A stretch of DNA of 64,000 nt from a virus. Of this stretch, positions 142 to 34,191 are shown in pieces (position 1 is the stretch's first letter; each line of letters begins with the position of its first letter). The translations under genes were made by a program, and so were the position numbers. The stretch is taken from the IMG/VR virus record IMGVR_UViG_3300008108_000036; one strand, given 5' to 3'. A model generated the notes under the pieces. It worked only from the letters and a program-made list of their open reading frames with translations, did no database searches and had not been told where the DNA came from.

Positions 142-381
142 ATGAGCCTTTATATTGATGAAGAACTGAGTCTACAGGAGCGATATGATAAGCTTAACAA
201 GGACCACCAGAGAGTCCTGGCTGAGTACTATAGGGACTCTGTAGACTTCCACAAGCAGATCATACAGCTCAAAGATGAGCTAGCAGAAGCAAAGCTAGCA
301 CTACAAAACCAATCCTTAAAGGAGAGAAAGCAATCTTCTCTATTGACCTGTCCAACGATTGGTCTTAATATTATCTCATGA
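142..381 (+). CDS. hypothetical coiled-coil protein, paralog of 954..1235
   Basis: MSLYIDEELSLQERY..AEYYRDSVD nearly identical to the N-terminal half of 954..1235. Confidence 0.75.
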   Translation: MSLYIDEELSLQERYDKLNKDHQRVLAEYYRDSVDFHKQIIQLKDELAEAKLALQNQSLKERKQSSLLTCPTIGLNIIS

Positions 382-953: not shown

Positions 954-1235
954 ATGAGTATCTATATTGACGAAGAGGAGAGTTTGCAAGAGCAATACAA
1001 CAAACTCCTGCTGGACTACGAACGGATGGCTGCAGAGTACTATAAAGACTCAGTAGATTACAACGAGAGAATTGTGCAACTAAAAGACGAGATTGAGGGG
1101 TATAAATCCGCTCTAGCAGTCTTGTCTTTATATGTCAGCGCTGGGATTGGAGATGACACACTGACTCCTAAGCAGTATGTTGATAGAATTAAAGATGGGA
1201 TAAATCATTTAGTAATTCCTATTGAAGGAGCTTAG
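954..1235 (+). CDS. hypothetical coiled-coil protein, paralog of 142..381
   Basis: shared MS(L/I)YIDEE.SLQE.Y motif. Confidence 0.75.
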   Translation: MSIYIDEEESLQEQYNKLLLDYERMAAEYYKDSVDYNERIVQLKDEIEGYKSALAVLSLYVSAGIGDDTLTPKQYVDRIKDGINHLVIPIEGA

Positions 1236-1312
1236 TACAGCATTTACATACTCTTCATGATGTCAATGTTACGAGCGACACGAGAAGGCAAAGCAATTAG
1301 ATAAGTAAACTT

Positions 1313-1672
1313 ATGAAATCTAAAGATCAACGACTATTGGAAGAAGCTTATGTTAAAATCAGTCTAGTTAAAGAAGAGACGGTTGATGATTTTAACTCAC
1401 GTATGATACAAAAAGAACTCGAACATCAACAAGATGATGTTGTTGATAAAGATGAAGTCGAAAGTGCTGAGGTTGATAAAGATGAGGAAGCATTTAAAGA
1501 TTCTTCTCATTCAGGTATTGATGAAGAAACAACTCAAATGTACTACAGTGCTTTAAAGAAGTTCGAGAACAATGAGATCACTTCTCAGCAATGGTATGAC
1601 ATATGTGCCAAGTTGCTTGGAGATCTTATGGAAAAGAACAAGGATGTCTTCATTCGTTTAAAGGACAGATAA
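1313..1672 (+). CDS. N-tagged acidic protein (MKSKDQRLLEEAY)
   Basis: N-tag; ATAAGTA at 1301-1307, 5 nt before ATG; no C-tag. Confidence 0.85.
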   Translation: MKSKDQRLLEEAYVKISLVKEETVDDFNSRMIQKELEHQQDDVVDKDEVESAEVDKDEEAFKDSSHSGIDEETTQMYYSALKKFENNEITSQQWYDICAKLLGDLMEKNKDVFIRLKDR

Positions 1673-1680
1673 AGAACCAT

Positions 1681-2322
1681 ATGAAGTCTAAAGATACGCA
1701 ATTACTAGAAGAAGCGTATGAAAAAACCATACTGTTAGAAACAGAGAAATGGGTTCGAGATTATCTCGAACAAGGAAGCAAAGGAGATTTAGATTTACAA
1801 AAATCTTATATTACCGAACTTCCAGAGAATCTTGTTGTTAACGGATCGTTAGATTTAAATTGTTGTAGCAAATTAAAAGCTCTTCCGAAAGGTTTAGTTG
1901 TTAAACATGATTTAGATCTATATGGTTGCGGCTTTATTGAAGAATTTCCTGCAGATGCAAAAGTTGGTGGAACAATAGATTTGAGAGGAACACGAATAAA
2001 AGTATTGCCTTCAAATCTTAATGTAGGAGGAAGTCTATACATTTCAAGATACACAAGACTTTCAGAGAACACCACCATTGCTCTTACACTTCACGTAGAC
2101 ACACCCTTTCTTAAAAAAGCTGAACCTCTTCCAAAAGGATTAAAGGTTCATGATTTATATTCTCCTCAGCTTGAATTAGAAGAGCTTCCAGATGACATAG
2201 AAGTAATAGATAGAGTAATGTCTCAAAAATTTTCAGAAGAAGAAGCAAAGAAATATATAGCTAGGAGAAACAAGGTAAGTAAAATAGAGAATAACCTACC
2301 GGAGATAAAAGGTTTGTTTTAA
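1681..2322 (+). CDS. N+C-tagged LRR-like repeat protein, paralog of 32517..33068
   Basis: true start likely ATG 1681 (MKSKDTQLLEEAY), not 1603; repeats LPxxLxVxGxLDL; ends NNLPEIKGLF*. Confidence 0.85.
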   Translation: MKSKDTQLLEEAYEKTILLETEKWVRDYLEQGSKGDLDLQKSYITELPENLVVNGSLDLNCCSKLKALPKGLVVKHDLDLYGCGFIEEFPADAKVGGTIDLRGTRIKVLPSNLNVGGSLYISRYTRLSENTTIALTLHVDTPFLKKAEPLPKGLKVHDLYSPQLELEELPDDIEVIDRVMSQKFSEEEAKKYIARRNKVSKIENNLPEIKGLF

Positions 2323-2823
2323 ATGAAAAACAAAGACCAACAACTTCTCGAAGAGGCATACGAACAAGTTCAAAAGCCTTCCCATGCAGAACGAAAAAAG
2401 ATGGTTAAGGATTTTTATAATCAGATTGAGCCTATTGCTAACTATCATTTTAGTTTCATTAAACCTCTTTCACCGGGAACAGAGATATGTTGGTTAAAGC
2501 CAATAGAAGAAGTGGGTGTTTGGACAATAAGCTCGAATGGAAAATGGATTAACTCTCGGACGTTTGAAAATTTACAAGCGTTTGAAAACCAAAACGGAAA
2601 ACTTGAAGAGGAATGGCGAAATATATTGTTTGTAAAGGGAGAATCGTTAGTGAATTGCTATAAGGATGGAAAAAACTATTCTGCACATTTAGGATATGAG
2701 GTAAATCCTACAAAAGAGTTTTATAAAGCATTACACAAGCCTATTGTATTTGATCACTATTATATAAAAGATAAATTTGAAAGAATAAAGAAAAAGCTTC
2801 CAGAGTTGGAAGGAGTATTTTAA
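2323..2823 (+). CDS. N+C-tagged protein, C-half related to 33072..33485
   Basis: MKNKDQQLLEEAY ... KKLPELEGVF*; abuts the previous stop (TAAATG). Confidence 0.85.
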   Translation: MKNKDQQLLEEAYEQVQKPSHAERKKMVKDFYNQIEPIANYHFSFIKPLSPGTEICWLKPIEEVGVWTISSNGKWINSRTFENLQAFENQNGKLEEEWRNILFVKGESLVNCYKDGKNYSAHLGYEVNPTKEFYKALHKPIVFDHYYIKDKFERIKKKLPELEGVF

Positions 2824-2958
2824 GTTAGCTGTGTGCATGCCTATAATCTAGGTTAAAGCCTTAGCTCTGCTGCAGCCATTCGGAATACTTTCATGTTATT
2901 AACTATATCCGCCAGTATAATAGTTGATTTCTACAGCAACTTGAAGTAGAGTCGACAA

Positions 2959-3348
2959 ATGAAAATAACAGAACGATTTGAAGAATGGTTTTATGACCAC
3001 CCTGGTATAACTATCCTTGGAATCCTAACAATAACACCTGCCGCTATAATCGGATCTATGTTCTTGCTTTGGTATAGTCTTGGGGTAAGAGGATTTGGAC
3101 CAGAATATGTTAATACAGTAACGGTGCAAAGGCTATATGTCGATGGAGGAAGCTCCTCTCATTATATTGTAGGTACTGATAAGGGTGTATATGAGATCGA
3201 TAATATTCTCTTTCCCATACAACTCTTTAATTGTGATGAGTTGTACAGTAAACTAGAAGTGGGCAAGATATATAAAGTTAAAGTTAAAGGCAATAAGGTT
3301 ACAAATTGGTTTATACAGCAATATCCTTATATTATTGAAATCGAATAG
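2959..3348 (+). CDS. membrane-anchored hypothetical protein
   Basis: hydrophobic N-terminal segment; sigma70-like TTGATT-17-TAGAGT 6 nt upstream. Confidence 0.7.
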   Translation: MKITERFEEWFYDHPGITILGILTITPAAIIGSMFLLWYSLGVRGFGPEYVNTVTVQRLYVDGGSSSHYIVGTDKGVYEIDNILFPIQLFNCDELYSKLEVGKIYKVKVKGNKVTNWFIQQYPYIIEIE

Positions 3349-3380
3349 CTAACAATAAAATATTTTATATTAAAAAGTTT

Positions 3381-3587
3381 ATGAAAACACACTTTGATGA
3401 ACAAGTAGATAAAATCAGACAAATGCTTTTTGAAAAGATTAAAGACATGAAAGAGAATCCAAATCTTTTTGATGAAAACAAAAATGATTATGTTGAGATT
3501 TTACATGATCAAATGAATAAGATGGAATTTGCTAGAGAGGTTCACAATCATTATATTGTTACAGGAGAAGTAAAAATACCAAAATAG
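3381..3587 (+). CDS. hypothetical protein
   Basis: ORF in co-directional run. Confidence 0.6.
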   Translation: MKTHFDEQVDKIRQMLFEKIKDMKENPNLFDENKNDYVEILHDQMNKMEFAREVHNHYIVTGEVKIPK

Positions 3588-3592
3588 TTTTT

Positions 3593-3859
3593 ATGAAACA
3601 ATCACACACGGAATATAAATATGCAATATATCATAAGCCTACCCAAAAATGGGTACAATTTGGAAATGATCATTCAGAACTAACAGCAACTATTATAGAA
3701 CTAGTTGATTTTAAAGATTGTTTAATTGTTGGCAATAAAGATTATTTGGAAAGATTCTTGAAGAGAAGTGCTTTTAATAATACTCCAAATTACGGAAGAG
3801 ATAATTTTTTGGAATTCGACTTTATAAAAGTAAACACAACATATACAATAGAAGAATGA
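3593..3859 (+). CDS. hypothetical protein
   Basis: ORF in co-directional run. Confidence 0.6.
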   Translation: MKQSHTEYKYAIYHKPTQKWVQFGNDHSELTATIIELVDFKDCLIVGNKDYLERFLKRSAFNNTPNYGRDNFLEFDFIKVNTTYTIEE

Positions 3860-3901
3860 AAGAAAGTATTTTGTTAATAGAAAAAATTTTTATTTAAGTT
3901 T

Positions 3902-4573
3902 ATGATTTTGGCTTTATCTGACATTCATCTTGGTAGTCCAATTTGCCAAGCGGACTTGACATTGGAAATTCTAGAGAAAGAGAAATACGATAAACTAATC
4001 ATATGTGGGGATTTGCTGGATAGTTATCATATTCATAGATTATGTAAAAAACAGTGGAAGATACTTTCCACTCTGAGAAAAATTTCAAAACACAAGCAAT
4101 GTGTTTTTATTAAAGGAAACCACGACAAAGATTTAGAAATGATTTCTACATTGATGGGATTAGACTTCAAAGAAGAACATGAAGTTAAAATCAACGGTAA
4201 AAAAATTTTATTTGTTCATGGCGATAGATGGGATATTTTTATTGCAACGAAACCAGTCTTAACTGAACTAGCTAGTGCAGTATATTACGTTCTTCAAAAA
4301 ATTGATAAGAAACAAAAGTATACGAGAAAGTTAAAACAAAAAGTGAAAACTTGGCATGATGCTGCACATAATTTAACAATTAACGTTGCACAGCATTGCT
4401 ACAATGGTAAATACGATGCTGTTTGTTTTGGGCACACACATGTTCCAAAGCACGAACATATTGGCGGAATAGAATGCGTTAATTTAGGTTCTCAATGTGA
4501 TTTACCGATTACTTATGCTATTATAGACAACGAAGGAAAAATACAATTAAAATCGAAAGACAATAAAAAATGA
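3902..4573 (+). CDS. calcineurin-like metallophosphoesterase (LpxH/UDP-2,3-diacylglucosamine hydrolase-like)
   Basis: SDIHLG, GDLLD, GNHD, HGD, GHTH motifs. Confidence 0.85.
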   Translation: MILALSDIHLGSPICQADLTLEILEKEKYDKLIICGDLLDSYHIHRLCKKQWKILSTLRKISKHKQCVFIKGNHDKDLEMISTLMGLDFKEEHEVKINGKKILFVHGDRWDIFIATKPVLTELASAVYYVLQKIDKKQKYTRKLKQKVKTWHDAAHNLTINVAQHCYNGKYDAVCFGHTHVPKHEHIGGIECVNLGSQCDLPITYAIIDNEGKIQLKSKDNKK

Positions 4574-4905
4574 GTGAATATATTCCAGAAAAATGGGTAG
4601 TGATTAAGCTCGAAACAAAGAATATTCCTTTAACATATAAGGTATTTGCTAATTGGTATGGTGGTTATCTTAATGGAGATTCTTGGAAACTTAACAGTGG
4701 AATTAAAGCAGTATCAGAAAGTGACAAATACTATTTATTTGAAGGGTTTTCTGGTTCTATATATAAATGTTTTAAGAACAATTATGGAATGAATATGTAT
4801 GGAACAGGTGTAATACAAGATATTATTAAAAAAGCCGAAGAGTTTGATGGCAAAATAGAAATAATGCCAGAAGGTACAAATTGGCTTGAATTAAAGTATG
4901 AATGA
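4570..4905 (+). CDS. conserved myovirus-type hypothetical protein
   Basis: WVVIK..YKVFANWYGGYLNGDSWKLNSGI motif recalled from large phages. Confidence 0.7.
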   Translation: MSEYIPEKWVVIKLETKNIPLTYKVFANWYGGYLNGDSWKLNSGIKAVSESDKYYLFEGFSGSIYKCFKNNYGMNMYGTGVIQDIIKKAEEFDGKIEIMPEGTNWLELKYE

Positions 4906-4936
4906 ATAATAATGAACCGTTGTTTACAGAAAATTA

Positions 4937-4965
4937 TTGACGTGTCCAATAATAATTTTTAATAT
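4937..4965 (+). promoter_or_regulatory. sigma70-like (early) promoter
   Basis: TTGACG-17-TAATAT. Confidence 0.6.
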
Positions 4966-4974
4966 CAAAACAGT

Positions 4975-5289
4975 ATGACAAAAACAACATTCAAGGTAAA
5001 CGACACTAAAACTTCAGTAAACGGAGCATCACTAAAAGGGTGGGTGCTCACTACATATGATGGTCTTTGTGAAATACTCGGACCAGATAAAGGTGGTTCA
5101 GCTGACGGCAAGACAACAGCGGAATGGGTTTTAGAAGGTTCGGATGGAACGGTGGCTCTAATTTACGATTGGAAAACGTCTTCTACGCCGAAAGATTTTT
5201 ACGAATGGCATATAGGAGGTCACACTAGCAAAGCACTTGAGTTGGTAGGAGATATTTTAAAACTCGACACAAAAAAATTCCGAATTTAA
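4975..5289 (+). CDS. phage hypothetical protein
   Basis: DGKTTAEW..IYDWK..EWHIGG; TTGACG-17-TAATAT promoter upstream. Confidence 0.75.
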   Translation: MTKTTFKVNDTKTSVNGASLKGWVLTTYDGLCEILGPDKGGSADGKTTAEWVLEGSDGTVALIYDWKTSSTPKDFYEWHIGGHTSKALELVGDILKLDTKKFRI

Positions 5290-5327
5290 TTGGTTACAAC
5301 AAAATTACAACTTAACTCAAAAAAATA

Positions 5328-5606
5328 ATGAAACTGGTAATACCAACCATAAACCTCATCGAGAAGCATACAACTGCTTTGCAAACTGGTCTTCTCGAAG
5401 CACAAGATATCATTCATCAATTCTTGGAGACTCATATTCTTCCTTATATTAAAGCAGCAGGTTCGAACGTGTTAGCTAAACTGTTTCCGTTTGAGGATTT
5501 AAATGATCGACCATCTGTTTTTATTCAACAAACATGGATTGAAAAGGTTATGAATAAATCACAAGTTAAAGATTATCTTTGGCATCCAACAAAGGCCGAA
5601 CAATGA
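5328..5606 (+). CDS. hypothetical protein
   Basis: ORF in run. Confidence 0.55.
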   Translation: MKLVIPTINLIEKHTTALQTGLLEAQDIIHQFLETHILPYIKAAGSNVLAKLFPFEDLNDRPSVFIQQTWIEKVMNKSQVKDYLWHPTKAEQ

Positions 5607-5799
5607 TTATTATGGCATGCATTGTCACAATGTTTTGTGAAATAATTCAGCAAGCTCGTATCGACTTCGATAATTTTATTACTACTGTATATAAACATAA
5701 TAACCGCTCACAAGAGATTGTGCATAATAATCAACCTTTTGATTGGCAGTCGTGGAAAGAAGAAAATTAAATAACAAATAGTTTTAAATAAATAAAGGG

Positions 5800-6198
5800 A
5801 TGAAAAACTCCCTGTTATATAGTGGGCTACTAGCTGTAGTTATCATTAATTGGCTGTTCTTTACAGGATGTACTAGTATTCCTCCTTCCAACGTGCCAGA
5901 ATGGGTAGGAAAAATGAAAAACGCTTGCTTGCCAGAAGCAATTGTTATGACGGAGGGGTTAAAGAAGGCAGGCATTCAAGCGAAAGTTTTATCAATTCAT
6001 ACCAAAGAATGGGGACATGCTACTTGCGTGTATCTTTATCCTCCCGGTCAAAATAAACTTTGGGTTTGGGATAGTCACTGGCAATCAGTTCCTTTAAGAT
6101 GTTGGTGGAATGATCCATATTCTGTTGCTAAAGCATGGATGGCTTGGAGATATGATGAAACTTCTATAACTCATGCTTATTTTCACGAAGCTCCTTGA
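5800..6198 (+). CDS. putative lipoprotein with transglutaminase/papain-like Cys-His-Asp triad
   Basis: signal peptide with lipobox-like FFTGC; NACLPEA, GHA, WVWDS. Confidence 0.55.
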   Translation: MKNSLLYSGLLAVVIINWLFFTGCTSIPPSNVPEWVGKMKNACLPEAIVMTEGLKKAGIQAKVLSIHTKEWGHATCVYLYPPGQNKLWVWDSHWQSVPLRCWWNDPYSVAKAWMAWRYDETSITHAYFHEAP

Positions 6199-6371
6199 TC
6201 CACATTTTAACTGAAATATGAAACATAGAGTATACAGAGCAAAATTACATTTACTGTGTTTATTCAAAAATCCAAAATGTTGGAGATTTTATGTTAAAGG
6301 TATTTTTAGAGAATTTGGAATTTACTTAAATTTTCTTTAACATGTAAGCATAGTAATAAATGTTTGACGAA

Positions 6372-6899
6372 CTAACTAATTTTAGTAGGCACTTCAATGG
6401 TTCTGTTGTTAAAGTTTTTTTGTAAAAACGTTTGTAATTCTTGAGTTATATTCCAATCTGCTGGAATAGGAGCTTCTAACCCATGCTGTTTAATTAATTC
6501 TGTTAAATGTGTTAAAAATTTCTGTTCGACGGAACCATCAACAATAGCAGCAACTTGGTCGTCTACGTTTAACTTATCTACAACAGTACCTGTCTTTTTG
6601 GTATCAGGTCTTTCAAAAGCTGTCTTTAAAAAATCAAAAGCAGTTTTTGCATTAGAAGCTCCAGGAATTAACCCGAGAACTTGATCGACTGCAAAACTTA
6701 TTCCTTTATCTAAAAGCTTGCCTCCTTTATTTTTAATTTGTATTCCTTGAATTAGTTTAAGTAAATCTCCAAAAGTATTTATTTTTGGAGATTGTTGTAT
6801 GGATGTAGTAGGTAGAGGCTGATTATTAGTTGATTCCTTCGATTGTTGAGAAATTTGTTCGTATACTTCTTCCAGCAAAATCTGATCTTTGGATTTCAT
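6372..6899 (-). CDS. N-tagged protein (MKSKDQILLEEVY)
   Basis: N-tag; ATAAATA 5 nt upstream on the minus strand; divergent from 6957. Confidence 0.85.
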   Translation of the reverse strand: MKSKDQILLEEVYEQISQQSKESTNNQPLPTTSIQQSPKINTFGDLLKLIQGIQIKNKGGKLLDKGISFAVDQVLGLIPGASNAKTAFDFLKTAFERPDTKKTGTVVDKLNVDDQVAAIVDGSVEQKFLTHLTELIKQHGLEAPIPADWNITQELQTFLQKNFNNRTIEVPTKIS

Positions 6900-6956
6900 A
6901 GTGGTATTTATTAACTTTTAAACAATTTAAATATATAAATAGAATAAATAAGAACA
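6900..6956. promoter_or_regulatory. divergent T4-like late promoter motifs
   Basis: ATAAATA on both strands 5-6 nt before two N-tagged genes; TATAAATA 6934-6941. Confidence 0.55.
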
Positions 6957-7607
6957 ATGAAATCTAAGGATCAACAATTATTAGAAGAAGCTTACGAAAG
7001 TATTTTTAAACAAACTAATTTAATAACAGAAGCAACTATTGCGTGGGACACTATACCTGTAAACAAATTGCTTGAAACCACAACACCAGAAGTTTTAGAA
7101 GAACTCTTTTCAGGAATAAAATCCATGGCTCAATCTGCATGGAATGGAGTTAAAAATGTTGGACAAGCTGTGGCCAACAAAGCTACTCAAACCGCAGGAG
7201 GTATTAAGGCAGCTGCTCAGCAAGTAGGTCAAAACGTTAAAAATATTTATAATACCGGAGAGCAGGAAAGTGCAGCAAAGCAAAAAACCGAACGTGCTGC
7301 TGAACTTGTTTCGCAAATTCAAAATGTAGTATCTGAGCTTATTAAAGCAAATCCCGTTATTGGTAAAGAATTTGAAGGCAAAGATCCAATGTCATTTACT
7401 TTAGGACAAATTCATAGTGCCCTTCAACGTGGGTTAGAATCTAAACAAAGATCCCAAAGAGCTGCTTCTTCTAAAGCAACACAAGCAAAACAAACAGGAA
7501 TTTTCGGTGGAGTAAAACAAGCTTTTAATACAGGCTCTTCATCTCCATCATCACCAGCTCCAGAATCAGGATCGTCCGTTGCTTCTCCAGCTTTAGCTTC
7601 TGCTTAA
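6957..7607 (+). CDS. N-tagged Ala/Gln-rich helical protein
   Basis: MKSKDQQLLEEAY..LITE; TATAAATA 6934-6941 and ATAAATA 6944-6950 upstream. Confidence 0.85.
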   Translation: MKSKDQQLLEEAYESIFKQTNLITEATIAWDTIPVNKLLETTTPEVLEELFSGIKSMAQSAWNGVKNVGQAVANKATQTAGGIKAAAQQVGQNVKNIYNTGEQESAAKQKTERAAELVSQIQNVVSELIKANPVIGKEFEGKDPMSFTLGQIHSALQRGLESKQRSQRAASSKATQAKQTGIFGGVKQAFNTGSSSPSSPAPESGSSVASPALASA

Positions 7608-7641
7608 GAAATAATTTTCCATTATAGTACAGCAAAGTAGT

Positions 7642-7929
7642 CTAAAAAGTAAAAGGACAAGCATTCTCTCCTGTGATGGAGTAATCTGTGTTTTTATGCC
7701 AAAGTAAGACTTCACCAATAGTTGTCATAACTCTTTTTTCTACAATAATTTCTCCTCTATGTATTTTTAAATGGCAATTACTGCATATATTGGCTAAATT
7801 ATCGTGACTGTTTGGATTTTTAATAGTTCTGCCTCGAATATGGTGTTGAACTAAAAACGTTTGTTCTTTGCAGACTTCGCAAGAATAATTCCCAGTTGCA
7901 TTTAAACGTCGTCTGAGCTTTCTATTCAC
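7642..7929 (-). CDS. HNH endonuclease
   Basis: CEVC..HHI..N..N..CSNCH..IH. Confidence 0.8.
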   Translation of the reverse strand: MNRKLRRRLNATGNYSCEVCKEQTFLVQHHIRGRTIKNPNSHDNLANICSNCHLKIHRGEIIVEKRVMTTIGEVLLWHKNTDYSITGENACPFTF

Positions 7930-8400
7930 TTAATTATTTACAGTTATAAACAAATAAGTTAAAGTAAATTATCTAATAATTTGATTTATAAAAGATTGAA
8001 GGGAATATTTAAATTAATGAAGTATTATACTATAACTAAAACCGATCTTAAAAGGTTTTTTAATAGAGACGTAGAAGCTGATGTAGACTATCCTTCTCCT
8101 GCTGATGCTTTTATGCTTGATATGTTACAACAAATGTCTCCTATTCAAAGGGAACATTGGATTAAACAACAAGCAGCTCAATTTATAACAGAAACAGATC
8201 AAGCTAAACAAACGAAAGATTTTAACTAAATAATATTATGATTTATATCATTGTGATTCACGGAATAGCCACAGCAATTTGTTTTGGGCTAGCAATTTGG
8301 GGAATTATTTCCGATCATAAAGATAGTTATCGCTCACGAAAATAACAACTGTTGTCATTTAATTCTTGACGTGCTTCTAGAAAAATAAGACACTATTGAT

Positions 8401-8931
8401 ATGAATAAACCGTTAAAAACCATTTCAATGAATCGTAAAAAGTTAGCTTCGCCGTTTTTTTCAATAAGAAAAGAAAAGGTTAAATGGCCAACTATAAGGG
8501 GAGCCTACATGACTGACGAGAACGTGTTAAAACTAAAAGAATTCGTTACAAAAAAAGGCAGATCCATTATATTTTTGGACAGTATATATAATACCACATT
8601 AAATCGTTATAAAAATCTTCCATCCGAAGAAAGAGCTGTTTGTTGGGAATTTATGTGTAAAGAAAAAGGAATTAAAGGAGGAATTTTTATGCTTTGTTGG
8701 TTGGGAAACTTTCATAATGGCTGTATTTTTCATTGTTCTCCCCAATTTCCACAAATCCAATGCTGGTATGAACATATGGGATTTGAGAAAGCAAACGCGT
8801 TCTTTGAAAGACAATCTTTTAAAATTTACAAAGAAGTGGTATCAATTTTACACGAATATTCAGAAATTATAGATGAAGAAGTTAAATCATTTATTGAAAA
8901 TGGAAATTCTGTTTTATCGTTACACAAATAA
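8401..8931 (+). CDS. hypothetical protein
   Basis: 176 aa ORF; TTGACG-17-GACACT 6 nt before ATG. Confidence 0.65.
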   Translation: MNKPLKTISMNRKKLASPFFSIRKEKVKWPTIRGAYMTDENVLKLKEFVTKKGRSIIFLDSIYNTTLNRYKNLPSEERAVCWEFMCKEKGIKGGIFMLCWLGNFHNGCIFHCSPQFPQIQCWYEHMGFEKANAFFERQSFKIYKEVVSILHEYSEIIDEEVKSFIENGNSVLSLHK

Positions 8932-8985
8932 TATGACGTTTGCACAACCGTGATAGTATTATAAAAAAATATTAAATACCATATT

Positions 8986-9447
8986 ATGAAGTCCAAAGAT
9001 CAACAATTATTAGAAGAAGCGTATTATTCAATTTATCTTAAAGAAGGTATAACCGAAGATTGGTTTAAACAAGGTTCATTTAAAACCTACAAACAAGCTG
9101 CTCCAGAACCATTTGAGGTAGCTCAAGAAGATGGTACGTTACAAACTTTAGAAGGACCTCAACAATACAAAAAAGGGTTTTATATTATAACCGGACCTAA
9201 AGGAGAAAAGTATTCAATGCCTCCAGAAAAATTTCAAGAACTTAAAGATGATAATGGCGATGGAACAGCCACACCAAAAAAAATTGAGAAATTAGCTAAG
9301 CTAGCCGATTCATCCGGAACAGTTAAAACATCTTGGGGAGCAGAATTACAATATAAACCAGGAGAAGATTATATCGTTCGACATGGAGTAGGAGATTACG
9401 GAGTAGTTAAAAAAGATGTTTTTGATAAAACATATAAAGCACCATAA
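8986..9447 (+). CDS. N-tagged protein with PGDYG-like tandem domains
   Basis: MKSKDQQLLEEAY..YLKE; TLEG..G.YIITGPKGEKY and GDYGVVK.DVF.KTY. Confidence 0.8.
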   Translation: MKSKDQQLLEEAYYSIYLKEGITEDWFKQGSFKTYKQAAPEPFEVAQEDGTLQTLEGPQQYKKGFYIITGPKGEKYSMPPEKFQELKDDNGDGTATPKKIEKLAKLADSSGTVKTSWGAELQYKPGEDYIVRHGVGDYGVVKKDVFDKTYKAP

Positions 9448-9534
9448 CCAGTAAGAACTCAAGAAGGTTAATTTTCAAAAAAACATTTTTTTAGGAACGG
9501 CAAAACGGTCCTCAACCGTTATTAAGTATATATA

Positions 9535-9765
9535 GTGATGAAAAACAGCCCTTACGAAATCAATATTACGTTTAATAAAAAGCGATATACAGTCTCAATT
9601 ATTATGGATCGTACGATAAACGGTAAAGTTCAATGTGATTTTGAAATTTTAACTGACGAAAAAATGACTGGAAACGATTTCCAAAAGCTTAAAACTTATC
9701 TCGAAAAAGAAGGTTATGTTGATGCTGCTTTAGATCATTATGGATATCCAAATTCATCAATGTGA
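9535..9765 (+). CDS. hypothetical protein, related to 45165..45362
   Basis: DFQKLKTYLEKEGYVD vs DFHKVEKYLRDEGFFD. Confidence 0.65.
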   Translation: MMKNSPYEINITFNKKRYTVSIIMDRTINGKVQCDFEILTDEKMTGNDFQKLKTYLEKEGYVDAALDHYGYPNSSM

Positions 9766-9766
9766 T

Positions 9767-10060
9767 TTATTGTTGAGCTTTGATCCAGTCAAAACGAACA
9801 CAAAACCGATTGCATAAATCTGCTAGCTTTATGAAGTAGTCAATCTCCTCTGAAGTTTTGTCGTCAACTAAATCGCACCAACTAGTTCTTTTTTGAATGT
9901 GCGTTAAAGCTTTTTCTACAGAGTGATTTATATCTACTAAATCAGCAGCAGTAAGAACAAAGCCTTCTCCATATTGTGTTTCATATTCTTCTGGATATAG
10001 TGTGCGTAATTCAGCTTTTATACAAGATTGCACATAATTGTCATATTCTTTATCTGTCAT
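9767..10060 (-). CDS. hypothetical protein
   Basis: ORF with ATAAATA upstream. Confidence 0.6.
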   Translation of the reverse strand: MTDKEYDNYVQSCIKAELRTLYPEEYETQYGEGFVLTAADLVDINHSVEKALTHIQKRTSWCDLVDDKTSEEIDYFIKLADLCNRFCVRFDWIKAQQ

Positions 10061-10139
10061 TTTAATCGTTTATATTTATTTAAACTTATTTTTTAAAGAA
10101 TTTTTCTGTTAAATTAATTTATTATAAGTATTAATATAA

Positions 10140-10517
10140 ATGAAAACTTTTGATCAACTTCTTTTGGAACAAGCATATGAAACAGTAATTTTAAATGAAG
10201 ACCTGTCATCTAAATTGGATAAGCTACAATTAGCTTTAGATCTTGCAGGAATAGAACCGACGGTCGGAACAATTGCTGATGGAGCAAACACAATAATATC
10301 TTCTTTAAGAGCTGCTTCTGCATTAGCTTCAAAAAATAAAGACGAAGCAGCAGAACACGCAATTAATGCAGGCATTTCTATTATATCCATTATCCCTTTT
10401 GCTGATGTGGTGAAATTGCTAAAAGCTCGAAAGTTAAGGAAGCCTGCTCTTTATGCAGCAAAAGCAATAAAGCTTGCTGGTAAAACAGCCAAGGCTCAAA
10501 GAATGTCAAATTATTAA
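10140..10517 (+). CDS. N-tagged protein with pre-toxin (PT-TG)-like helical motif
   Basis: MKTFDQLLLEQAY..ILNE; LDLAGIEPTVGTIADGAN...AGISIISIIPFADVVK. Confidence 0.7.
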   Translation: MKTFDQLLLEQAYETVILNEDLSSKLDKLQLALDLAGIEPTVGTIADGANTIISSLRAASALASKNKDEAAEHAINAGISIISIIPFADVVKLLKARKLRKPALYAAKAIKLAGKTAKAQRMSNY

Positions 10518-10529
10518 ATAAATATGTAT

Positions 10530-10633
10530 AATCTCTCTTGCGAGGTGGCTCCCTTAATAGTCGCGGCTGACCTCGAGCATCTGATAGAGTCTAAACCATC
10601 TATACAGGGGCGAAACGCAAGAGAGATTTTTTA
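10530..10633 (+). ncRNA. candidate small structured RNA
   Basis: perfect 13-bp closing stem 10530-10542/10616-10628, GC-rich interior hairpins, ATAAATA at 10518-10524 just upstream, T-tract downstream. Confidence 0.5.
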
Positions 10634-10742: not shown

Positions 10743-13700
10743 ATGAAGGTAATTTCTAAAATTAACTTAACAATCACCTTTCTGATTGCTTTCTTTTTCT
10801 TTGCTTTTTTTGGTTATTCAGCCAATATGTATTGGACTGGAAATGCTGCTACTGCAAATGTAAACAATAATAGTAATTGGTCGCCGTATTATGGTAACGA
10901 CATAACAGCTGATATTTTTTACTCTGATGCTTCTATACAGTATGTAATGAATTTTAATGCAACAGCTAATTGGACATGGAATAGTATAACATTTAATTGC
11001 GACTCTAATTTTAGCATAAATTATAATGCTAACGTTGGAATTCTTGGTACCGCTGGAGGAGGCGTAATTGCTGCAGCACCAGGCTCTATTGTAAGAACTT
11101 ACTCTATTCTAGATGAATTTAGAGTAACTGCAAATCAAACTTGGGCAACTTCCAACCAATATTCTAAACTTGTTGTAACTCAAGCAAATGGCAATCTTGC
11201 ATTGGGGTCAAACGTGCTAACTTTAAATACTTTTAATAATACTAATTCCACCATTTTTATAGGTTCCGCCATTTCAGGTACTGGTTCAATTATTAAGACA
11301 GGAGGAGGAACAGCTACATTTAATGGTACAAATACGTATAACGGCACTACTACTATTAATGCTGGTACTCTTACTACAGGTGGAGCAAACAAACTTTCTG
11401 ATTCTTCTGACATTATTGTAAATTCTGGAGGCACTCTTACTCTTGGTGGAGCTGACACCGTTGGGATACTTTCAGGTTCTGGAGCAATCTCTATTGGCTC
11501 TAATACGATTACTGTTAGTTCTTCTAACAATGCTACGTTCTCAGGCAATATTACCGGAGCATCAGGAGGTTTTACTAAGTCTGGTACTGGTAATCAAACT
11601 CTTTCTGGCACTGGAAACTCTTGGAATGGAACAACAACGGTAAGCGGAGGAACTCTTCTTCTTTCTGGATCACTTACATCAAATGCTAGTGTCGCAGTGG
11701 GAAGTTCTTCTGGTGCTGTACTAACAATCACTGGCAACCTTAATCAAACAAAAACTGAAGGTGGTCCAAGAGCGTTTCAAATTGCTGCAAATACTGGTTG
11801 GAGCGGTACTGTAAATGTTGATGGAGGAGTTCTAAGAATCGGAACGGGAATGATGCTTGGAGACAACGGAGGCGGAAACGGAACGCTAAATATAACAAGT
11901 GGAACAGTAACAAATTCTGATTTTTGGTTTGCTGGTCCTAATAGCACTCTAACAGTCACAGGAGGAACTTATAATGGAACTGGAACCATTTTTATTGGTG
12001 GAGGAGGAGTTTCTGGATCAACATCAACAAGCAATCTAAACATAAGCGGCAATGGTTCTGTTGTTAGTACTAGAATAAGGTATGGAGACGGAGGAGCAAA
12101 TGCTACTACTATTGTTAACCTTGGAAATGGTTCTGCTGGAGGTTCTCTTTCTATAGCAGCAATGGATCACATTAACGGGTCGAACCACATAATAAACTTT
12201 AATGGAGGAACACTCGTTGCAAACGGGACATTCGGAATGCTTTCTCAAATAACAACTAATATTAAAACAGGAGGAGCAATATTTGATGTAAGCGGATCAA
12301 ATACACTTACTGTCAATAACAACTTATTAACAGATGGAACGGGAGGAGGGCTTACAAAAAACGGTTCGGGAACTCTTACTCTTTCTGGTAACAATACATT
12401 TACAGGAACAATTACTCTAAACAATGGAAGATTGAATATAAATTCTGCTACTGCTATTGGAAATGGAACACTTATTATTAACGGAGGTTCTTTGGATTCT
12501 TCTGGATCTAGCTCTGTGAATTTAACTACAAATAATGCTCAAAATTGGAACGCAGATTTTACTTTTGTGGGAACTAAAGATCTCAATATGGGTAGTGGAG
12601 TAGTTGCGATGAACGCAAATAGGACGGTAACCGTTAGTGGAGGAAATTTAACAATAGGAGGAGCAATTTCAGGAAGTGGATTTAATTTAACAAAAAACGG
12701 AACAGGGAGAATAATTTTAGAAGGAGCTAACTCTTATACTGGAATAACAACAATTAATTCGGGAGTTCTTCGTGTTTCAAACTCTTCAGGACTTGGTACT
12801 ACTACTGGAAATACGACAGTGATTAATGGTGCTGTGTTAGAGATTAGTGGAAACATTTCAATCGGAAATGAAGCCTTGGCTCTTTCTGGAACGGGAATTA
12901 GTTCCGGAGGAGCTCTCCGTAATGTTTCTGGCAATAATTCTTATGCAGGAGCAATAACGTTAGCAGCAACAACACGGATTAATTCTGATAGCGGAGACTT
13001 AATTTTAACTGGAGGAATTACAGGAAATCAAAGTATTGTATTTGGAGGAGCTGGTAATACAACTGTTTCTACAACTGCTATTACCAATGGTGTTGCAGGA
13101 CTAACAAAAGACGGAACAGGAACTTTGACAATTTCAAGTACTGGTAATACTTGGAACGGTCGTACAGAAATTCAAAACGGAGTTGTTAATTTAACTGGAA
13201 GTTTGACATTTAATGGCACGACGTTCCTAGCTGGACATTCATCGAGCAATTCCGTTTTAAACATCACAGGAACGTTAGCATTAACAAATACAGCTTCTAC
13301 AAACCGTCAATTTCAAATTGCACAAGGAGGCTCTCATGTTGGAGTAGTTAATGTTAGTGGATCTGGCAATTTAACTATTGCTAATGGATGGATGTTGGGA
13401 GAGAATGGTGGAGGAACCAGCACTTTAAATGTGTTGGGAGGTATTGTAAACAACGGAGGACAGACTTGGTTTTCGGGAGCCAACAGCACTCTTAATATTA
13501 GTGGAGGATTTTACAATTCGAGTGGAAAAGTTGTATATTTTGGTGGTGGGAGTGGAAATACTAACAGCACTATAACGGTAAGTGGTAGTGGTTATATGGA
13601 AGCTTCTACCATTCAATTTGGGGCGGGTGGTGCTGGAGCGATAACTACTATTAATCTTGGAAATGGATCAGTTGGAGGTAATCTTTCAGTAACGGGATTA

Positions 13701-15059
13701 GGGTATAGCAATGGTGCTCATACTATCAATTTCAATGGTGGCACATTAACTGCTAATAGTAATTTGTCTATGATAACTCAAGCAACAACCGTTGTAAAGT
13801 CTGGAGGAGCATTTATAAATGTTAACTCGGGATTTACGTTCACTATCAGCAACAATCTTACTACTGACGGTTCAGGTGGAGGTCTTACAAAAAACGGCAA
13901 CGGCACGTTAGTTATTTCTGGAGTTGGAAACAATTACACTGGAACTACTACAATCAATTCGGGTACACTAACCTTTGGTGCCAATCAAACTATCGGTTCT
14001 GTTGCTGGGATAGGAGGAACGTTAAACCTGTCTAGTTTTAATTTAGTATCAAACGCTTTGAGTAATACTACATTTTCTGGCAACATTATTGGTACAGGAT
14101 TTTTTACGAAAAATGGTAGCGGAACTCTTATTCTTTCTGGTAGCAACTCTTATTCTGGAGGAACGACAATCAAACAAGGAACCATTTCTATTGGACATGC
14201 AAACGGATTAGGAACTTCCGGTAATATTAGTTTTACAGGAGGAGCAATAAAATATGAAAATGGTATAGTTCAAGATTTTTCTTTAAGAATAAAAAACAGT
14301 TCTTCTGATGTTAATATAAACACTAATGGAGGCAATATAACATTTGCAAATAATTTAGACCAAACAAACAGTGGAGGATTAACAAAAAGCGGTAACGGCA
14401 CTTTAACTCTTTCTGGAAATAATTCTTACTCTGGAACAACAACAGTAAATGGCGGAACTCTTAAGGTTAATCATATTAAAGCTTTAGGAAATAGCACAAC
14501 CGTGAACGTTAATGGAGGAACTTTATTAGTTGGAATAGACGACTCAATTAATGGTGTGCAAATAACATTAAATGGAACAACCTCAGCATTTGCAACTTTG
14601 GCTTTTAATGGAAATTATAACGGAACAATTAATACATTAACTCTTCAAGCCGATTCCATACTTGATCTCGGAGCAGAGTCAGTAACAGCTATAATCAATT
14701 CTATTATTAATATAGATCAATATATTTTGAAAGTTTATAGTTGGACCGGTACAACTCTTTCAGAAGGAGGAAATGGAAATGATGTAGATCGTTTATTATT
14801 CGGTCGTTCATTAACTGCAGTAGAACTTAATAATCTCCGATTTTATGGAGACTCATTCGGAAACGATTTTCTCGGTTCTGGTTATGAGATTGGGTTTCAG
14901 AATGGTTTTGCTCACGTCATTCCTGTACCAGAACTAAAAACTTATGTTACGGGAATATTGCTTCTTGTTTTTGGAGCTGTTTGGTTGTTTCAAAAAAAAA
15001 GTTTTAAATTTTCTATCAGCCGAAACGTTTTTTTAAAACAAAAAAAAAAAAAATTATAG
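10743..15059 (+). CDS. autotransporter-associated beta-strand repeat protein with PEP-CTERM-like sorting signal (Verrucomicrobia type)
   Basis: signal peptide from ATG 10743; many LTKxGxGTLTLSGxNTYxGxTTxNxG repeats; ends VIPVPELKTY + TM helix + basic tail. Confidence 0.85.
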   Translation: MKVISKINLTITFLIAFFFFAFFGYSANMYWTGNAATANVNNNSNWSPYYGNDITADIFYSDASIQYVMNFNATANWTWNSITFNCDSNFSINYNANVGILGTAGGGVIAAAPGSIVRTYSILDEFRVTANQTWATSNQYSKLVVTQANGNLALGSNVLTLNTFNNTNSTIFIGSAISGTGSIIKTGGGTATFNGTNTYNGTTTINAGTLTTGGANKLSDSSDIIVNSGGTLTLGGADTVGILSGSGAISIGSNTITVSSSNNATFSGNITGASGGFTKSGTGNQTLSGTGNSWNGTTTVSGGTLLLSGSLTSNASVAVGSSSGAVLTITGNLNQTKTEGGPRAFQIAANTGWSGTVNVDGGVLRIGTGMMLGDNGGGNGTLNITSGTVTNSDFWFAGPNSTLTVTGGTYNGTGTIFIGGGGVSGSTSTSNLNISGNGSVVSTRIRYGDGGANATTIVNLGNGSAGGSLSIAAMDHINGSNHIINFNGGTLVANGTFGMLSQITTNIKTGGAIFDVSGSNTLTVNNNLLTDGTGGGLTKNGSGTLTLSGNNTFTGTITLNNGRLNINSATAIGNGTLIINGGSLDSSGSSSVNLTTNNAQNWNADFTFVGTKDLNMGSGVVAMNANRTVTVSGGNLTIGGAISGSGFNLTKNGTGRIILEGANSYTGITTINSGVLRVSNSSGLGTTTGNTTVINGAVLEISGNISIGNEALALSGTGISSGGALRNVSGNNSYAGAITLAATTRINSDSGDLILTGGITGNQSIVFGGAGNTTVSTTAITNGVAGLTKDGTGTLTISSTGNTWNGRTEIQNGVVNLTGSLTFNGTTFLAGHSSSNSVLNITGTLALTNTASTNRQFQIAQGGSHVGVVNVSGSGNLTIANGWMLGENGGGTSTLNVLGGIVNNGGQTWFSGANSTLNISGGFYNSSGKVVYFGGGSGNTNSTITVSGSGYMEASTIQFGAGGAGAITTINLGNGSVGGNLSVTGLGYSNGAHTINFNGGTLTANSNLSMITQATTVVKSGGAFINVNSGFTFTISNNLTTDGSGGGLTKNGNGTLVISGVGNNYTGTTTINSGTLTFGANQTIGSVAGIGGTLNLSSFNLVSNALSNTTFSGNIIGTGFFTKNGSGTLILSGSNSYSGGTTIKQGTISIGHANGLGTSGNISFTGGAIKYENGIVQDFSLRIKNSSSDVNINTNGGNITFANNLDQTNSGGLTKSGNGTLTLSGNNSYSGTTTVNGGTLKVNHIKALGNSTTVNVNGGTLLVGIDDSINGVQITLNGTTSAFATLAFNGNYNGTINTLTLQADSILDLGAESVTAIINSIINIDQYILKVYSWTGTTLSEGGNGNDVDRLLFGRSLTAVELNNLRFYGDSFGNDFLGSGYEIGFQNGFAHVIPVPELKTYVTGILLLVFGAVWLFQKKSFKFSISRNVFLKQKKKKL

Positions 15060-28951: not shown

Positions 28952-29542
28952 GTGATGAATAACGATCAAAAATTATTAGAACTTCTTTACGAAAGCATTA
29001 CGGAAAATGCTGACTGTTTGCTTGATGAAGAACAGCTAATTGTTAATCAACTGTCTGAACGCATTGTAAAAGGTCTATATAAAACACTTGCTCCTCCAAA
29101 TCAATTTTATGGTTCTGAGTTTCTAGGAGTATTGTTTAACGCTAAATTAAATAAACTTTTTCTCAGCAAAATATTTTCACATACATCAGAACGACAACTC
29201 GAATCGATTTTTTATGTGTTTAATGAAATAATCCTTCATATATTATACAAATATCTCATACGAATAATCGGCATTGAAACTCCAAAAAGTGTTCGTTTTC
29301 AATCTTTAGAAGATTGGACGAATAGCGTAATTAGAGAAACAACAATTCCTTTTGATGATAAACAACAAGTACTACAAATGGTTAAAAAAACAATTAAAGA
29401 TGCCATTTTATATTTATATAAGGCAGGAGACCCAATACAAAAAAACAATAAAGGACATCCTGAATGGTATGAGTGGAGAAAAGAGAAATTAAAGTTCCAA
29501 GACATTCACAAAAAGTTACCAGAGCTTAAAGGAATATTTTAA
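28952..29542 (+). CDS. N+C-tagged protein (array 1/12), paralog of 33529
   Basis: MNNDQKLLELLYE ... WYEWRKEK..KKLPELKGIF*. Confidence 0.85.
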   Translation: MMNNDQKLLELLYESITENADCLLDEEQLIVNQLSERIVKGLYKTLAPPNQFYGSEFLGVLFNAKLNKLFLSKIFSHTSERQLESIFYVFNEIILHILYKYLIRIIGIETPKSVRFQSLEDWTNSVIRETTIPFDDKQQVLQMVKKTIKDAILYLYKAGDPIQKNNKGHPEWYEWRKEKLKFQDIHKKLPELKGIF

Positions 29543-29544
29543 AA

Positions 29545-30156
29545 ATGAAAGATAAAGATCATAAAAAGCTAGAGTTAATATACGAATCACTTAATGAGCC
29601 TTTTTATTTTATTAAAGAAGAAGAAATTTTCGTAAAAGAATGCGCTAAATATCTTGCTAAAAAAATTATTGAAACCGTAAAAACAAGACCAAAAGCCGTA
29701 CAAAAATATTTAGGATTTTCAATGTATGATATATTTTGGATATATGTACAAACATTTCATCATATTATTCCAGACGAAGTAATGGATAAAATAAATTTAA
29801 AACCACCTATAGCATATTGGTTCGATAATCTATATGAAGGATTTGTTATAAGGCCGTTAGCTCGAAGTATAACTGTAGACAAATTAAATGGCTTATGTCT
29901 TGTTATAAAAGATCCTTTTAATATAAAAAAACCTGAGGTTGTTCCAATAAAAGACGACAAAATACTTGCTAGTAAACTAGAAGACGCATTGAAGTATCGC
30001 ATTAAATTTGCATTTACAGACAATGAAACGATTAAAGACTTGAAGAGAGAAAGAGCTAACGGTAATTGGTGTGGAGAAGGATTTGCTTGGAGAGTGGAAC
30101 AAGCTAAATTTGGAAAGTTAATAGACAAGCTTCCGGAAATAGAAGGAGTATTTTAA
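29545..30156 (+). CDS. N+C-tagged protein (2/12), paralog of 31899
   Basis: MKDKDHKKLELIYE ... DKLPEIEGVF*. Confidence 0.85.
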   Translation: MKDKDHKKLELIYESLNEPFYFIKEEEIFVKECAKYLAKKIIETVKTRPKAVQKYLGFSMYDIFWIYVQTFHHIIPDEVMDKINLKPPIAYWFDNLYEGFVIRPLARSITVDKLNGLCLVIKDPFNIKKPEVVPIKDDKILASKLEDALKYRIKFAFTDNETIKDLKRERANGNWCGEGFAWRVEQAKFGKLIDKLPEIEGVF

Positions 30157-33068: not shown

Positions 33069-33071
33069 ATA

Positions 33072-33485: not shown

Positions 33486-33528
33486 GAAACTGATCGCTCT
33501 TTGCTATAACTTTCTAATAAATACAAAA

Positions 33529-34128: not shown

Positions 34129-34191
34129 GCTATGCGAACGTCTTCGAGCAATTAGAGTATTTATAAAAAGTAATAATTACTATTGTATAAC

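Follow-up and report, generated by a model that had tools for sequence, protein, structure and literature searches.

A shared N-terminal leader on many small proteins of an uncultured T4-related lake phage: a candidate capsid-targeting propeptide

Tagged genes in the window

We analysed a 64,000-nucleotide (nt) stretch of viral DNA, IMG/VR record IMGVR_UViG_3300008108_000036, referred to here in its full length as the window. It comes from an uncultured lake phage related to T4, in which many unrelated small proteins share one starting peptide. This peptide (the N-tag, consensus M-K-x-K-D-Q-x-L-L-E-E-A-Y) opens seven open reading frames (ORFs) within 1313-10517, as read from the ORF translations of the window (Table 1).

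L-L-E occupies residues 8-10 in 7/7 of these ORFs, in agreement with a preliminary description of this DNA, and L-E-E occupies residues 9-11 in 6/7. A second [ILV]-x-E falls within residues 12-25 in six of the seven: VKE at 19-21 (ORF 1313), LLE at 18-20 (1681), VYE at 12-14 (6372-6899), ITE at 23-25 (6957), LKE at 18-20 together with ITE at 22-24 (8986), and LNE at 18-20 (10140). The preliminary description had placed a second L/I-x-E in most copies. This is true of four of the seven if the first position is limited to Leu or Ile, and of six if Val is admitted; ORF 2323-2823 has no second [ILV]-x-E within residues 12-25.

Beyond the leader, the tagged proteins are mutually unrelated by Pfam and PHROG and mostly orphan, with the exception of the PGDYG protein encoded at 8986-9447. 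The protein encoded at 6957-7607 has a weak tape-measure-like PHROG match (phrog_58, E 4.7e-6). No family found in Pfam and PHROG searches of the tagged proteins covers the leader.

A further array, at 28955-35737, combines an N-terminal leader with a conserved C-terminus (C-tag). ORF 32517 of this array carries the canonical N-tag, and the other 10 carry a diverged leader, D-Q-K-x-L-E-x-x-Y-E-x-[IV]; Y-x-x-[ILV]-x-E can be read in 6 of the 11. Window-wide, 17 ORFs have the C-terminal K-L-P-E-L-x-G-[IV]-F, and the two tags are freely combined (N only, C only, or both). A related-locus search with the array protein 33529-34128 found no relative.

Table 1. Tagged ORFs, late-promoter-like boxes and the C-tagged array of the window. 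Starts and boxes are given as sequence; distances are counted to the start codon named.
Feature	Position	Strand	Start or box	Other features
N-tagged ORF	1313-1672	+	MKSKDQRLLEEAY	119 aa, acidic, without C-tag; leader MKSKDQRLLEEAYVKISLVKE
N-tagged ORF	1681-2322	+	MKSKDTQLLEEAY	213 aa; C-tag NLPEIKGLF; leader MKSKDTQLLEEAYEKTILLE; no own box, 8 nt past preceding stop
N-tagged ORF	2323-2823	+	MKNKDQQLLEEAY	166 aa; C-terminus KLPELEGVF; ATG abuts preceding stop; no box
N-tagged ORF	6372-6899	-	MKSKDQILLEEVY	175 aa; leader MKSKDQILLEEVYEQI
N-tagged ORF	6957-7607	+	MKSKDQQLLEEAY	216 aa; basic, Ala/Gln/Ser-rich
N-tagged ORF	8986-9447	+	MKSKDQQLLEEAY	153 aa; cargo is a PGDYG domain (PF14083, 34.1 bits)
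N-tagged ORF	10140-10517	+	MKTFDQLLLEQAY	125 aa; C-terminal half basic; leader MKTFDQLLLEQAYETVILNE
Late-promoter-like box	1300-1307	+	GATAAGTA	5 nt before ATG 1313
Late-promoter-like box	6905-6912	-	AATAAATA	5 nt before ATG 6899
Late-promoter-like box	6934-6941	+	TATAAATA	first of two boxes ahead of 6957
Late-promoter-like box	6943-6950	+	AATAAATA	6 nt before ATG 6957
Late-promoter-like box	8971-8978	+	ATTAAATA	7 nt before ATG 8986
Late-promoter-like box	10123-10130	+	TATAAGTA	9 nt before ATG 10140
Late-promoter-like box	33516-33523	+	AATAAATA	5 nt before GTG start 33529
Array of 11 ORFs with N-leader and C-tag KLPELxG[IV]F	28955-35737	+		from window ORF translations; starts at 28955, 29545, 30157, 30681, 31302, 31899, 32517, 33529, ~34192, 34809, 35156
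ORF in array span with C-tag only	33072-33485	+		twelfth ORF, no N-leader

Position, length and modularity of the leader

We searched databases with a degenerate DNA pattern back-translated from K-D-Q-x-L-L-E-E-A-Y, a probe that is neutral as to position within a gene. In IMG/VR, 55 stretches were matched (74 matches, 57 distinct contexts), and the tag started two to three codons past a start codon in 57/57 distinct contexts (55 ATG, 2 GTG). Prokaryotes, represented by one genome per species (185,579 species), gave five matches. Four of these are internal to a conserved bacterial enzyme-like protein (KDQxFLEEAY), and in the fifth the tag is truly N-terminal, on a 7-kb contig of a metagenome-assembled genome binned as Melainabacteria; this contig encodes a PGDYG cargo and is probably phage DNA. 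Among 64 tag-coding sequences, Leu8 and Leu9 each occur in all six codons, Ala12 in all four, and Asp5 as GAT 36 and GAC 28 times. Since synonymous codons vary while the amino acids are invariant, selection acts on the peptide itself and not on the DNA. The tag is a strictly N-terminal, peptide-level and modular leader.

Other searches returned little. An exact 47-base stretch of the window had no match in IMG/VR. When compared by tblastn with 50,697 cultured-phage records, neither the 216-aa tagged protein nor the PGDYG protein was matched, and the first 22 residues, a query too short for power, had no match at E <=10. A homologue search with residues 1-40 of the 6957 protein found only that protein, the word index being unable to follow a 13-residue tag. 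The string LLEEAY occurs in no paper searched, and literature searches for capsid targeting sequences (CTS) in T4-like or metagenomic contexts gave T4 literature only.

The internal proteins (IPs) of T4 provide the reference for the leader. IPII and IPIII both start with MKTYQEFIAE followed by Ala, gp21 starts with MNEPQLLIE followed by Thr, and Alt starts with MELITE (T4 record). According to the available part of PMC9026906, gp21 cleaves L/I-X-E sites on the C-terminal side of Glu, and the ten N-terminal residues of IPIII are enough for packaging; within this 10-residue CTS, targeting involves residues 4 and 7, and processing involves residues 8 and 10. The T4 facts cited in the preliminary description were confirmed on the T4 record and in that paper.

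Length and site statistics were obtained from 55 IMG/VR proteins of >=60 residues. Residue 16 is Ile, Val or Leu in 51/55, and information content reaches background by about residue 20. The conserved unit reads as a leader of ~18-20 residues, M-K-x-K-D-Q-x-L-L-E-E-A-Y-x-x-[IV]-x-E, longer than assumed in the preliminary description; given this length, the cut may be at the second site. An [ILV]-x-E ending at residues 17-22 is present in 41/55 proteins, compared to 27.2 ± 2.1 in column shuffles that preserve the composition of each position (0/2000 reach 41), and equal-sized windows elsewhere in the same proteins contain it in 6.9%. Because the observed count exceeds all 2000 shuffles, the site at the leader end appears to be selected beyond helix-like composition. 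The prohead-protease motif L/I-x-E is present at the leader end as a motif only.

The segment L-L-E-E-A nests two overlapping sites, L-L-E (residues 8-10) and L-E-E followed by Ala (residues 9-11), the latter offering the same Glu-Ala bond as after the T4 CTS. There are thus three possible cut positions, E10, E11 and the second [ILV]-x-E near residue 18. We favour the last as a candidate because conservation ends there. The hydrophobic residues L8, L9, A12, Y13 and I/V16 would line one helix face.

Exchange of leaders between cargoes is seen most directly for PGDYG. Homologues in six other IMG/VR loci (L003-L008) match the window protein from about residue 21-25 only. Their leaders are MNPEFFRKYADLITE (followed by AEQ...), MNPEFFRKYSDLVTE (followed by AEQ...) and MNKMEDIRKFINLVE (followed by SAG...), each ending in [LIV]-x-E. 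One cargo behind unlike leaders with the same type of ending points to lineage-specific leaders of one design. These data also bear on common descent, in which the shared N-terminus would be the remnant first helix of a single diverged paralogous family. Tandem arrays (1313/1681/2323 and 28955-35737) would be expected from such an origin, and part of the array is plainly paralogous, the ...WYEWRKEKL... group being one example. However, the cargoes span unrelated folds and families (PGDYG here; DUF5661, a DUF2201_N metallopeptidase-like protein and an ATPase in relatives), one PGDYG domain occurs with three different leaders, and N-tag and C-tag are freely combined. We consider common descent very unlikely.

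The closest relative, G005, is a 217-kb IMG/VR genome with terminal repeats that is rated 100% complete. It has homologues of 32/98 window ORFs (33-88% identity). Between 1 and 10.5 kb, eight untagged neighbours have homologues in this genome, versus 0/7 tagged ORFs. The tagged cargoes appear to be accessory, variable genes; T-even internal proteins are likewise poorly conserved (PMC9026906, available part).

Tagged cargoes range from 64 to >600 residues in IMG/VR and the relatives. If the leader were recognized by a modifying enzyme, as happens in precursors of ribosomally synthesized and post-translationally modified peptides, many copies of a conserved N-terminus with a variable remainder would likewise be seen. 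This candidate was rejected on cargo size and the presence of folded domains; furthermore, the leader is only ~18 residues and no modifying enzyme is linked to tagged genes within the window, leaving this explanation with next to no probability.

Several diverged or unusual forms were recorded in relatives. In G006, the DUF2201_N metallopeptidase-like protein (L114:3677-4540(+), 47.7 bits) and the ATPase (L114:5837-7624(+), 595 aa, phrog_1297) start with diverged tag-like leaders, MRFNRDQQKLMALYESV and MNSRDDKNLKKIYASI, respectively. In G005, a 185-aa Lys-rich protein encoded a few kb downstream of the capsid gene (L099:2111-2668(-)) has the diverged tag MVFKDTQTLSGLYEGITKKVE and two internal tag-like segments (SKDQLIEQ... 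and SKDQDMLAEAYNVI), the only internal copy seen.

The C-tag was followed with a pattern consisting of the tag plus Glu, which matched polyproteins in one IMG/VR record and several metagenome contigs; many other matches were unrelated bacterial enzymes and were excluded. In these polyproteins, from other phages, modules are joined as ...KLPELxG[IV]FE followed directly by the next module, with no N-tag inside, and the joint [IV]-F-E is itself an [IV]-x-E site. Polyproteins with a visible start have other short leaders ending in [IV]-x-E, namely MSTFNKEYRSILE (followed by G), MSKFNDAYTTVVE (followed by G) and MGLFEQTYTNFFKGYTSFVNE (followed by S), the first two read from GTG starts assigned by eye. 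Alternative C-tails recur on N-tagged proteins: ...KITSDKVK.KKK in >=7 loci (L035, L039, L044, L045, L051, L060, L077) and ...DKDFDIDL.DF in G004 (L048, L075). These tails suggest that the C-terminal label varies between lineages while the N-tag is constant.

The window as a whole is phage-like and AT-rich (~30% G+C). ThyX, an HNH endonuclease and a calcineurin-like phosphoesterase are encoded in it, as are a T4-type RNA ligase domain and many ORFs that resemble sugar transferases. Just upstream of the first tagged gene, two paralogous small ORFs, 142-381(+) and 954-1235(+) (MSLYIDEELSLQERYDKLNKD... and MSIYIDEEESLQEQYNKLLLD...), flank ORF 378-947 and match one and the same place in G005. The protein encoded at 10743-15059(+) is 1438 aa long and contains eight autotransporter-type PATR repeats (PF12951, 158.6 bits). 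It has a hydrophobic segment at the N-terminus, and at the C-terminus a hydrophobic stretch precedes a basic tail. In a small protein encoded at 44701-45168(-), a prepilin-type N-methylation motif is matched weakly (17.5 bits, below cut-off). The PATR protein and the prepilin-like motif are unusual in a phage, and our guess is a host such as a bacterium of the Planctomycetes-Verrucomicrobia-Chlamydiae (PVC) group.

Late-promoter-like boxes and head genes of relatives

The sequence [AT]TAA[AG]TA lies 5, 5, 6, 7 and 9 nt ahead of the ATG of 1313, 6899(-), 6957, 8986 and 10140. All five stand-alone tagged genes thus have the box at the 5-9 nt reported in the preliminary description; it is absent before 1681 and 2323, which closely trail a neighbour gene. 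A box within 0-12 nt of the ATG was found for 17/98 window ORFs, comprising 5/5 stand-alone tagged genes versus 12/93 others (Fisher p = 9e-5). Both strands of the 64 kb contain 126 boxes in total, and of the 28 within 60 nt upstream of ORFs, 15 are at 5-9 nt. Among tagged genes in IMG/VR, 33/57 have a box, 31 of them at 5-9 nt.

The same core precedes structural genes. In the relative G001, TAA[AG]TA boxes lie 5-20 nt before genes for a gp22-like protein, a small core-like ORF, the adaptor, portal, sheath-stabiliser and baseplate wedge, and the capsid gene is preceded by a GTAAATA variant. Boxes at 5-9 nt without a Shine-Dalgarno sequence occur window-wide, for example at 5800, 17798(-), 25006, 37089, 42306(-) and 59714, and also at G001 structural genes (L012). 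With a box this close to the ATG there is no space for a leader; late mRNAs would thus be almost leaderless, and the pattern suggests the same for late mRNAs of this phage clade in general. In T4, gp55 reads late promoters that consist of an 8-bp TATA box placed about one turn ahead of where transcription begins (PMC2988020, in its available part). On the T4 record, TATAAATA boxes are separated from start codons by 13-33 nt, a spacer that includes a Shine-Dalgarno sequence. The likeness to T4 late promoters that had been proposed for the box extends to its core and to its place before a relative's structural genes, but not to its spacing.

As this spacing leaves no room for a Shine-Dalgarno sequence, the conserved 5' end could act as nucleic acid, either as the start context of nearly leaderless late mRNAs or as a recombination handle for cassettes, the peptide being incidental. 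Contigs from public runs would be in keeping with such a role. They join or break at the tag-coding stretch, with joints from 1726 to 6957 (RNA run) and from 2364 to 9030 (DNA run, depth 2.25), and loose contig ends lie on both sides of 1680-1719 and 6957-6994. However, depth at the joints is low and a 38-44-nt repeat may have given rise to them as assembly chimeras, synonymous codons vary freely over invariant amino acids, and 12 other window genes have the box and its spacing but not the tag. We therefore give a nucleic-acid role only a slight chance. Within the window, contig breaks and joins fall at 1680-1726, 2323-2364, 6957-6994 and 8986-9030, and the joints are either assembly chimeras via the repeat or real cargo-swapping recombinants.

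One freshwater metatranscriptome (RNA run X20, contigs, 12% of words) has contigs covering 1328-2123 and 6957-7577, with bins such as 2142-3397 and 7794-8735 uncovered; these contigs are unable to rank expression or show transcription starts or timing. One contig has its first base at 6957, probably as the result of a break at the edge of the repeat in the tag-coding stretch. Regions without RNA cover carry no evidential weight here, nor do public runs that contain only a small share of the sampled words.

The evidence for a gp21-type protease and a gp55-like factor comes from relatives. Peptidase_S77, the gp21 family, was found above cut-off (89-100 bits) in G001, G005, G006 and G008, which include 2/2 complete genomes, and was not found on the fragments G002, G003, G004, G007 and G009. 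A search with gp55 from the T4 record gave a homologue in each of these four relatives (E 4e-12 to 6e-5). The gene order of G001 by PHROGs is portal, head maturation protease, scaffold, major head protein.

The capsid proteins of the relatives have a candidate processing site of their own. They read ...EKWCLNE followed by Thr in G001, ...EKWCLRE followed by Gly in G005 and ...ERWCLEE followed by Ala in G006, so that all three keep C-L-x-E ahead of a Gly/Ser-rich stretch near residue 60. T4 gp23, which is cut after Glu65, aligns at 27% identity over 491 columns. The gp21 homologues of the clade begin MSNxY.LLVE[ES]P.YE. The likeness between the tag and the capsid N-terminus QQL[LV]EKW is one of four or five residues only.

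We also considered the acidic-hydrophobic C-tags as mimics of sliding-clamp-binding tails. Such tails belong to gp55, gp33 and gp43 (PMC2988020, available part). The gp55 homologues of G001, G005, G006 and G008 end differently, with no such tail, and the idea was rejected as unsupported.

Interpretation and comparison with known systems

The best explanation, which we hold to be moderately probable, is that the N-tag is a T4-type capsid-targeting propeptide specific to this lineage. The tagged proteins would then probably be carried in the virus head. The preliminary description had proposed capsid targeting as well, and in favour of it we find an N-terminal modular leader, protease-type sites, hypervariable genes, a late-type box, and gp21 and gp55 homologues in relatives. 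The resemblance to the T4 CTS that it also claimed is narrower: it covers the N-terminal position, M-K and [LI]-x-E at residues 8-10, and there is no similarity to MKTYQEFIAE beyond these.

By analogy with T4, packaging, cleavage, ejection and timing would be as follows, whereas any anti-defence or host-takeover role of the cargo, raised in the preliminary description, would be conjecture. The leader would dock the newly made protein onto the prohead scaffolding core, and a gp21-type prohead protease would cut after Glu and free the cargo within the head, with E10, E11 (giving the Glu-Ala bond of IPII and IPIII) and the second [ILV]-x-E near residue 18 as candidate cuts. The cargo would leave the head along with the DNA. 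Tagged genes would be driven by gp55-type late promoters very near the ATG, giving nearly leaderless mRNAs. The principle of a head-loading leader is already known, and the present leader sequence differs from that of T4.

A number of observations weigh against this interpretation. Tyr4 and Phe7 of the T4 CTS have no counterpart, these positions holding Lys and Gln or a variable residue in the window leader. The 41/55 count comes from proteins that are kin to one another and not phylogenetically independent, [ILV]-x-E is short, and its excess stems partly from a hydrophobic-then-acidic helix composition, as shuffles give 27/55. E-A-Y past the first site is invariant, which would be odd if the leader were cut at E10 or E11 and then discarded. 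Some cargoes (~400 aa, >640 aa and the 595-aa ATPase of G006) are large compared to T4 IPs, although not compared to Alt. T4 ipII and ipIII lack a TATAAATA box within 90 nt (T4 record), which, together with the 13-33 nt spacing in T4, makes the promoter analogy imperfect. Finally, the tag-bearing fragments G004, G007, G009 and G011-G016 (29-58% complete) had no capsid match to the G001 query, save for one of 16 bits in G016, and G004, G007 and G009 also have no gp21. In that search G001 was the positive control and, besides the 16-bit match, only G001 itself was matched; a search of ten tag-bearing fragments with the Gp23 family PF07068 was void, with no match anywhere. Incomplete fragments without a capsid gene say little, and neither support nor contradict a T4-like head.

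Several of these points would suit a different function, in which the leader is a helix that docks to something other than the prohead core (a host protein, a phage assembly chaperone, or a site on the tail or baseplate) and [ILV]-x-E is a by-product of an amphipathic acidic helix. Hydrophobic positions 8, 9, 12, 13 and 16 have the spacing expected of one face of a helix, column shuffles alone yield a site in 27/55 proteins, E-A-Y is invariant past the first site, sequence similarity to the T4 CTS is lacking, and most tagged genes are far from head genes, nine tag-bearing fragments having no capsid gene. We nevertheless regard a docking helix as unlikely. The observed sites are above all 2000 shuffles, and conservation ends directly after the second site. 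Swapped leaders on one cargo and the leaders of polyproteins differ, yet all end in [LIV]-x-E. Furthermore, a gp21-type protease is encoded in the lineage, whose capsid protein retains C-L-x-E.

A broader version of the capsid-targeting propeptide, which we consider doubtful, would be a two-address plug-in cargo system much larger than that of T4, with four elements. The first would be the 18-20-residue leader with nested cut sites, whose Q-Q-L-L-E-E-A-Y core would mimic the N-terminal helix of the phage's own capsid propeptide (...QQL[LV]EKW...) and that of its protease (...LLVE[ES]P.YE), so that cargo would take the scaffold sites of the shell protein. The second would be the KLPELxGIF tail, which on module fusion would turn into a protease joint (cut after [IV]-F-E). 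Leaderless late mRNAs would be the third, and the 38-44-nt tag-coding stretch, acting as a recombination handle that swaps cargo genes between genomes, the fourth. One virion would then deliver >=12 different, rapidly exchanged proteins.

Near-identical DNA to window 1200-10600 is present in freshwater and lake metagenome runs of >=9 studies (2017-2025), suggesting that the phage is widespread and persistent in lakes. Eight runs hold at least half of the sampled words of 1200-10600, and two of them may be the source sample. If the N-tag is a capsid-targeting propeptide, it would reveal, from sequence, which proteins are injected along with the DNA of an uncultured, widespread lake phage. The internal-protein class includes the T4 anti-restriction protein IPI and the RNA-polymerase modifier Alt. 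The CTS principle would reach far beyond T-even phages, which is only surmised in the available part of PMC9026906. Labels would follow lineage, with cargo domains passing from one label to another, and a single genome could carry a repertoire of >=12 genes. An ~18-residue leader with its cognate protease would also constitute a second, orthogonal system for loading foreign proteins into phage heads.

Compared with T4 late promoters, the box shares the core TAA[AG]TA with T or A ahead of it, the location before a relative's structural genes and a gp55 homologue in relatives. It differs in that its end is 5-9 nt from the ATG, versus 13-33 nt with a Shine-Dalgarno sequence in T4, and in that the first base of the 8-mer is often G, A or C.

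In the giant phages phiKZ, 201phi2-1 and SPN3US, inner-body or ejection proteins are processed by gp21-like proteases after Glu (PMC9026906, available part). They resemble the present system in having many head-internal proteins, propeptide removal after Glu at a minimal motif, and paralogue families. However, their cut is at S/A-x-E, the window phages are T4-like and not phiKZ-like, and the available text of PMC9026906 does not describe one common leader peptide for them.

The closest parallel is the T4 CTS. The internal proteins form a diverse set in which only the CTS is conserved (PMC3012670, available part), and relatives of T4 carry other proteins with CTS-like sequences (PMC9026906, available part). 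In both systems, a short N-terminal peptide is common to unrelated, poorly conserved small proteins that start with M-K and have [LI]-x-E at residues 8-10 and then Ala (one residue later in the window leader), the cargo genes are scattered and variable between relatives, and a gp21-type (Peptidase_S77) protease is present in the phage lineage, here in relatives. The differences are those of length, number and context. The window leader has ~18-20 residues, two or three candidate cut sites and an invariant Tyr three residues before the I/V of the second site, compared to 10 residues in T4; there are >=18 tagged genes in 64 kb, compared to three or four in T4; many of the window's tagged proteins also bear a conserved C-tag; and its promoter-like box sits right against the start codon. 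For the window system, packaging and cleavage are predictions. The tag core Q-L-L-[IE]-E also resembles the N-terminus of T4 gp21, a likeness of four or five residues, and cleavage of that N-terminus is itself only proposed in the available part of PMC9026906. Finally, T4 Alt is processed at both ends (PMC9026906, available part), and propeptides at both termini of a packaged protein would be a parallel to the combination of N-tag and C-tag in the window.

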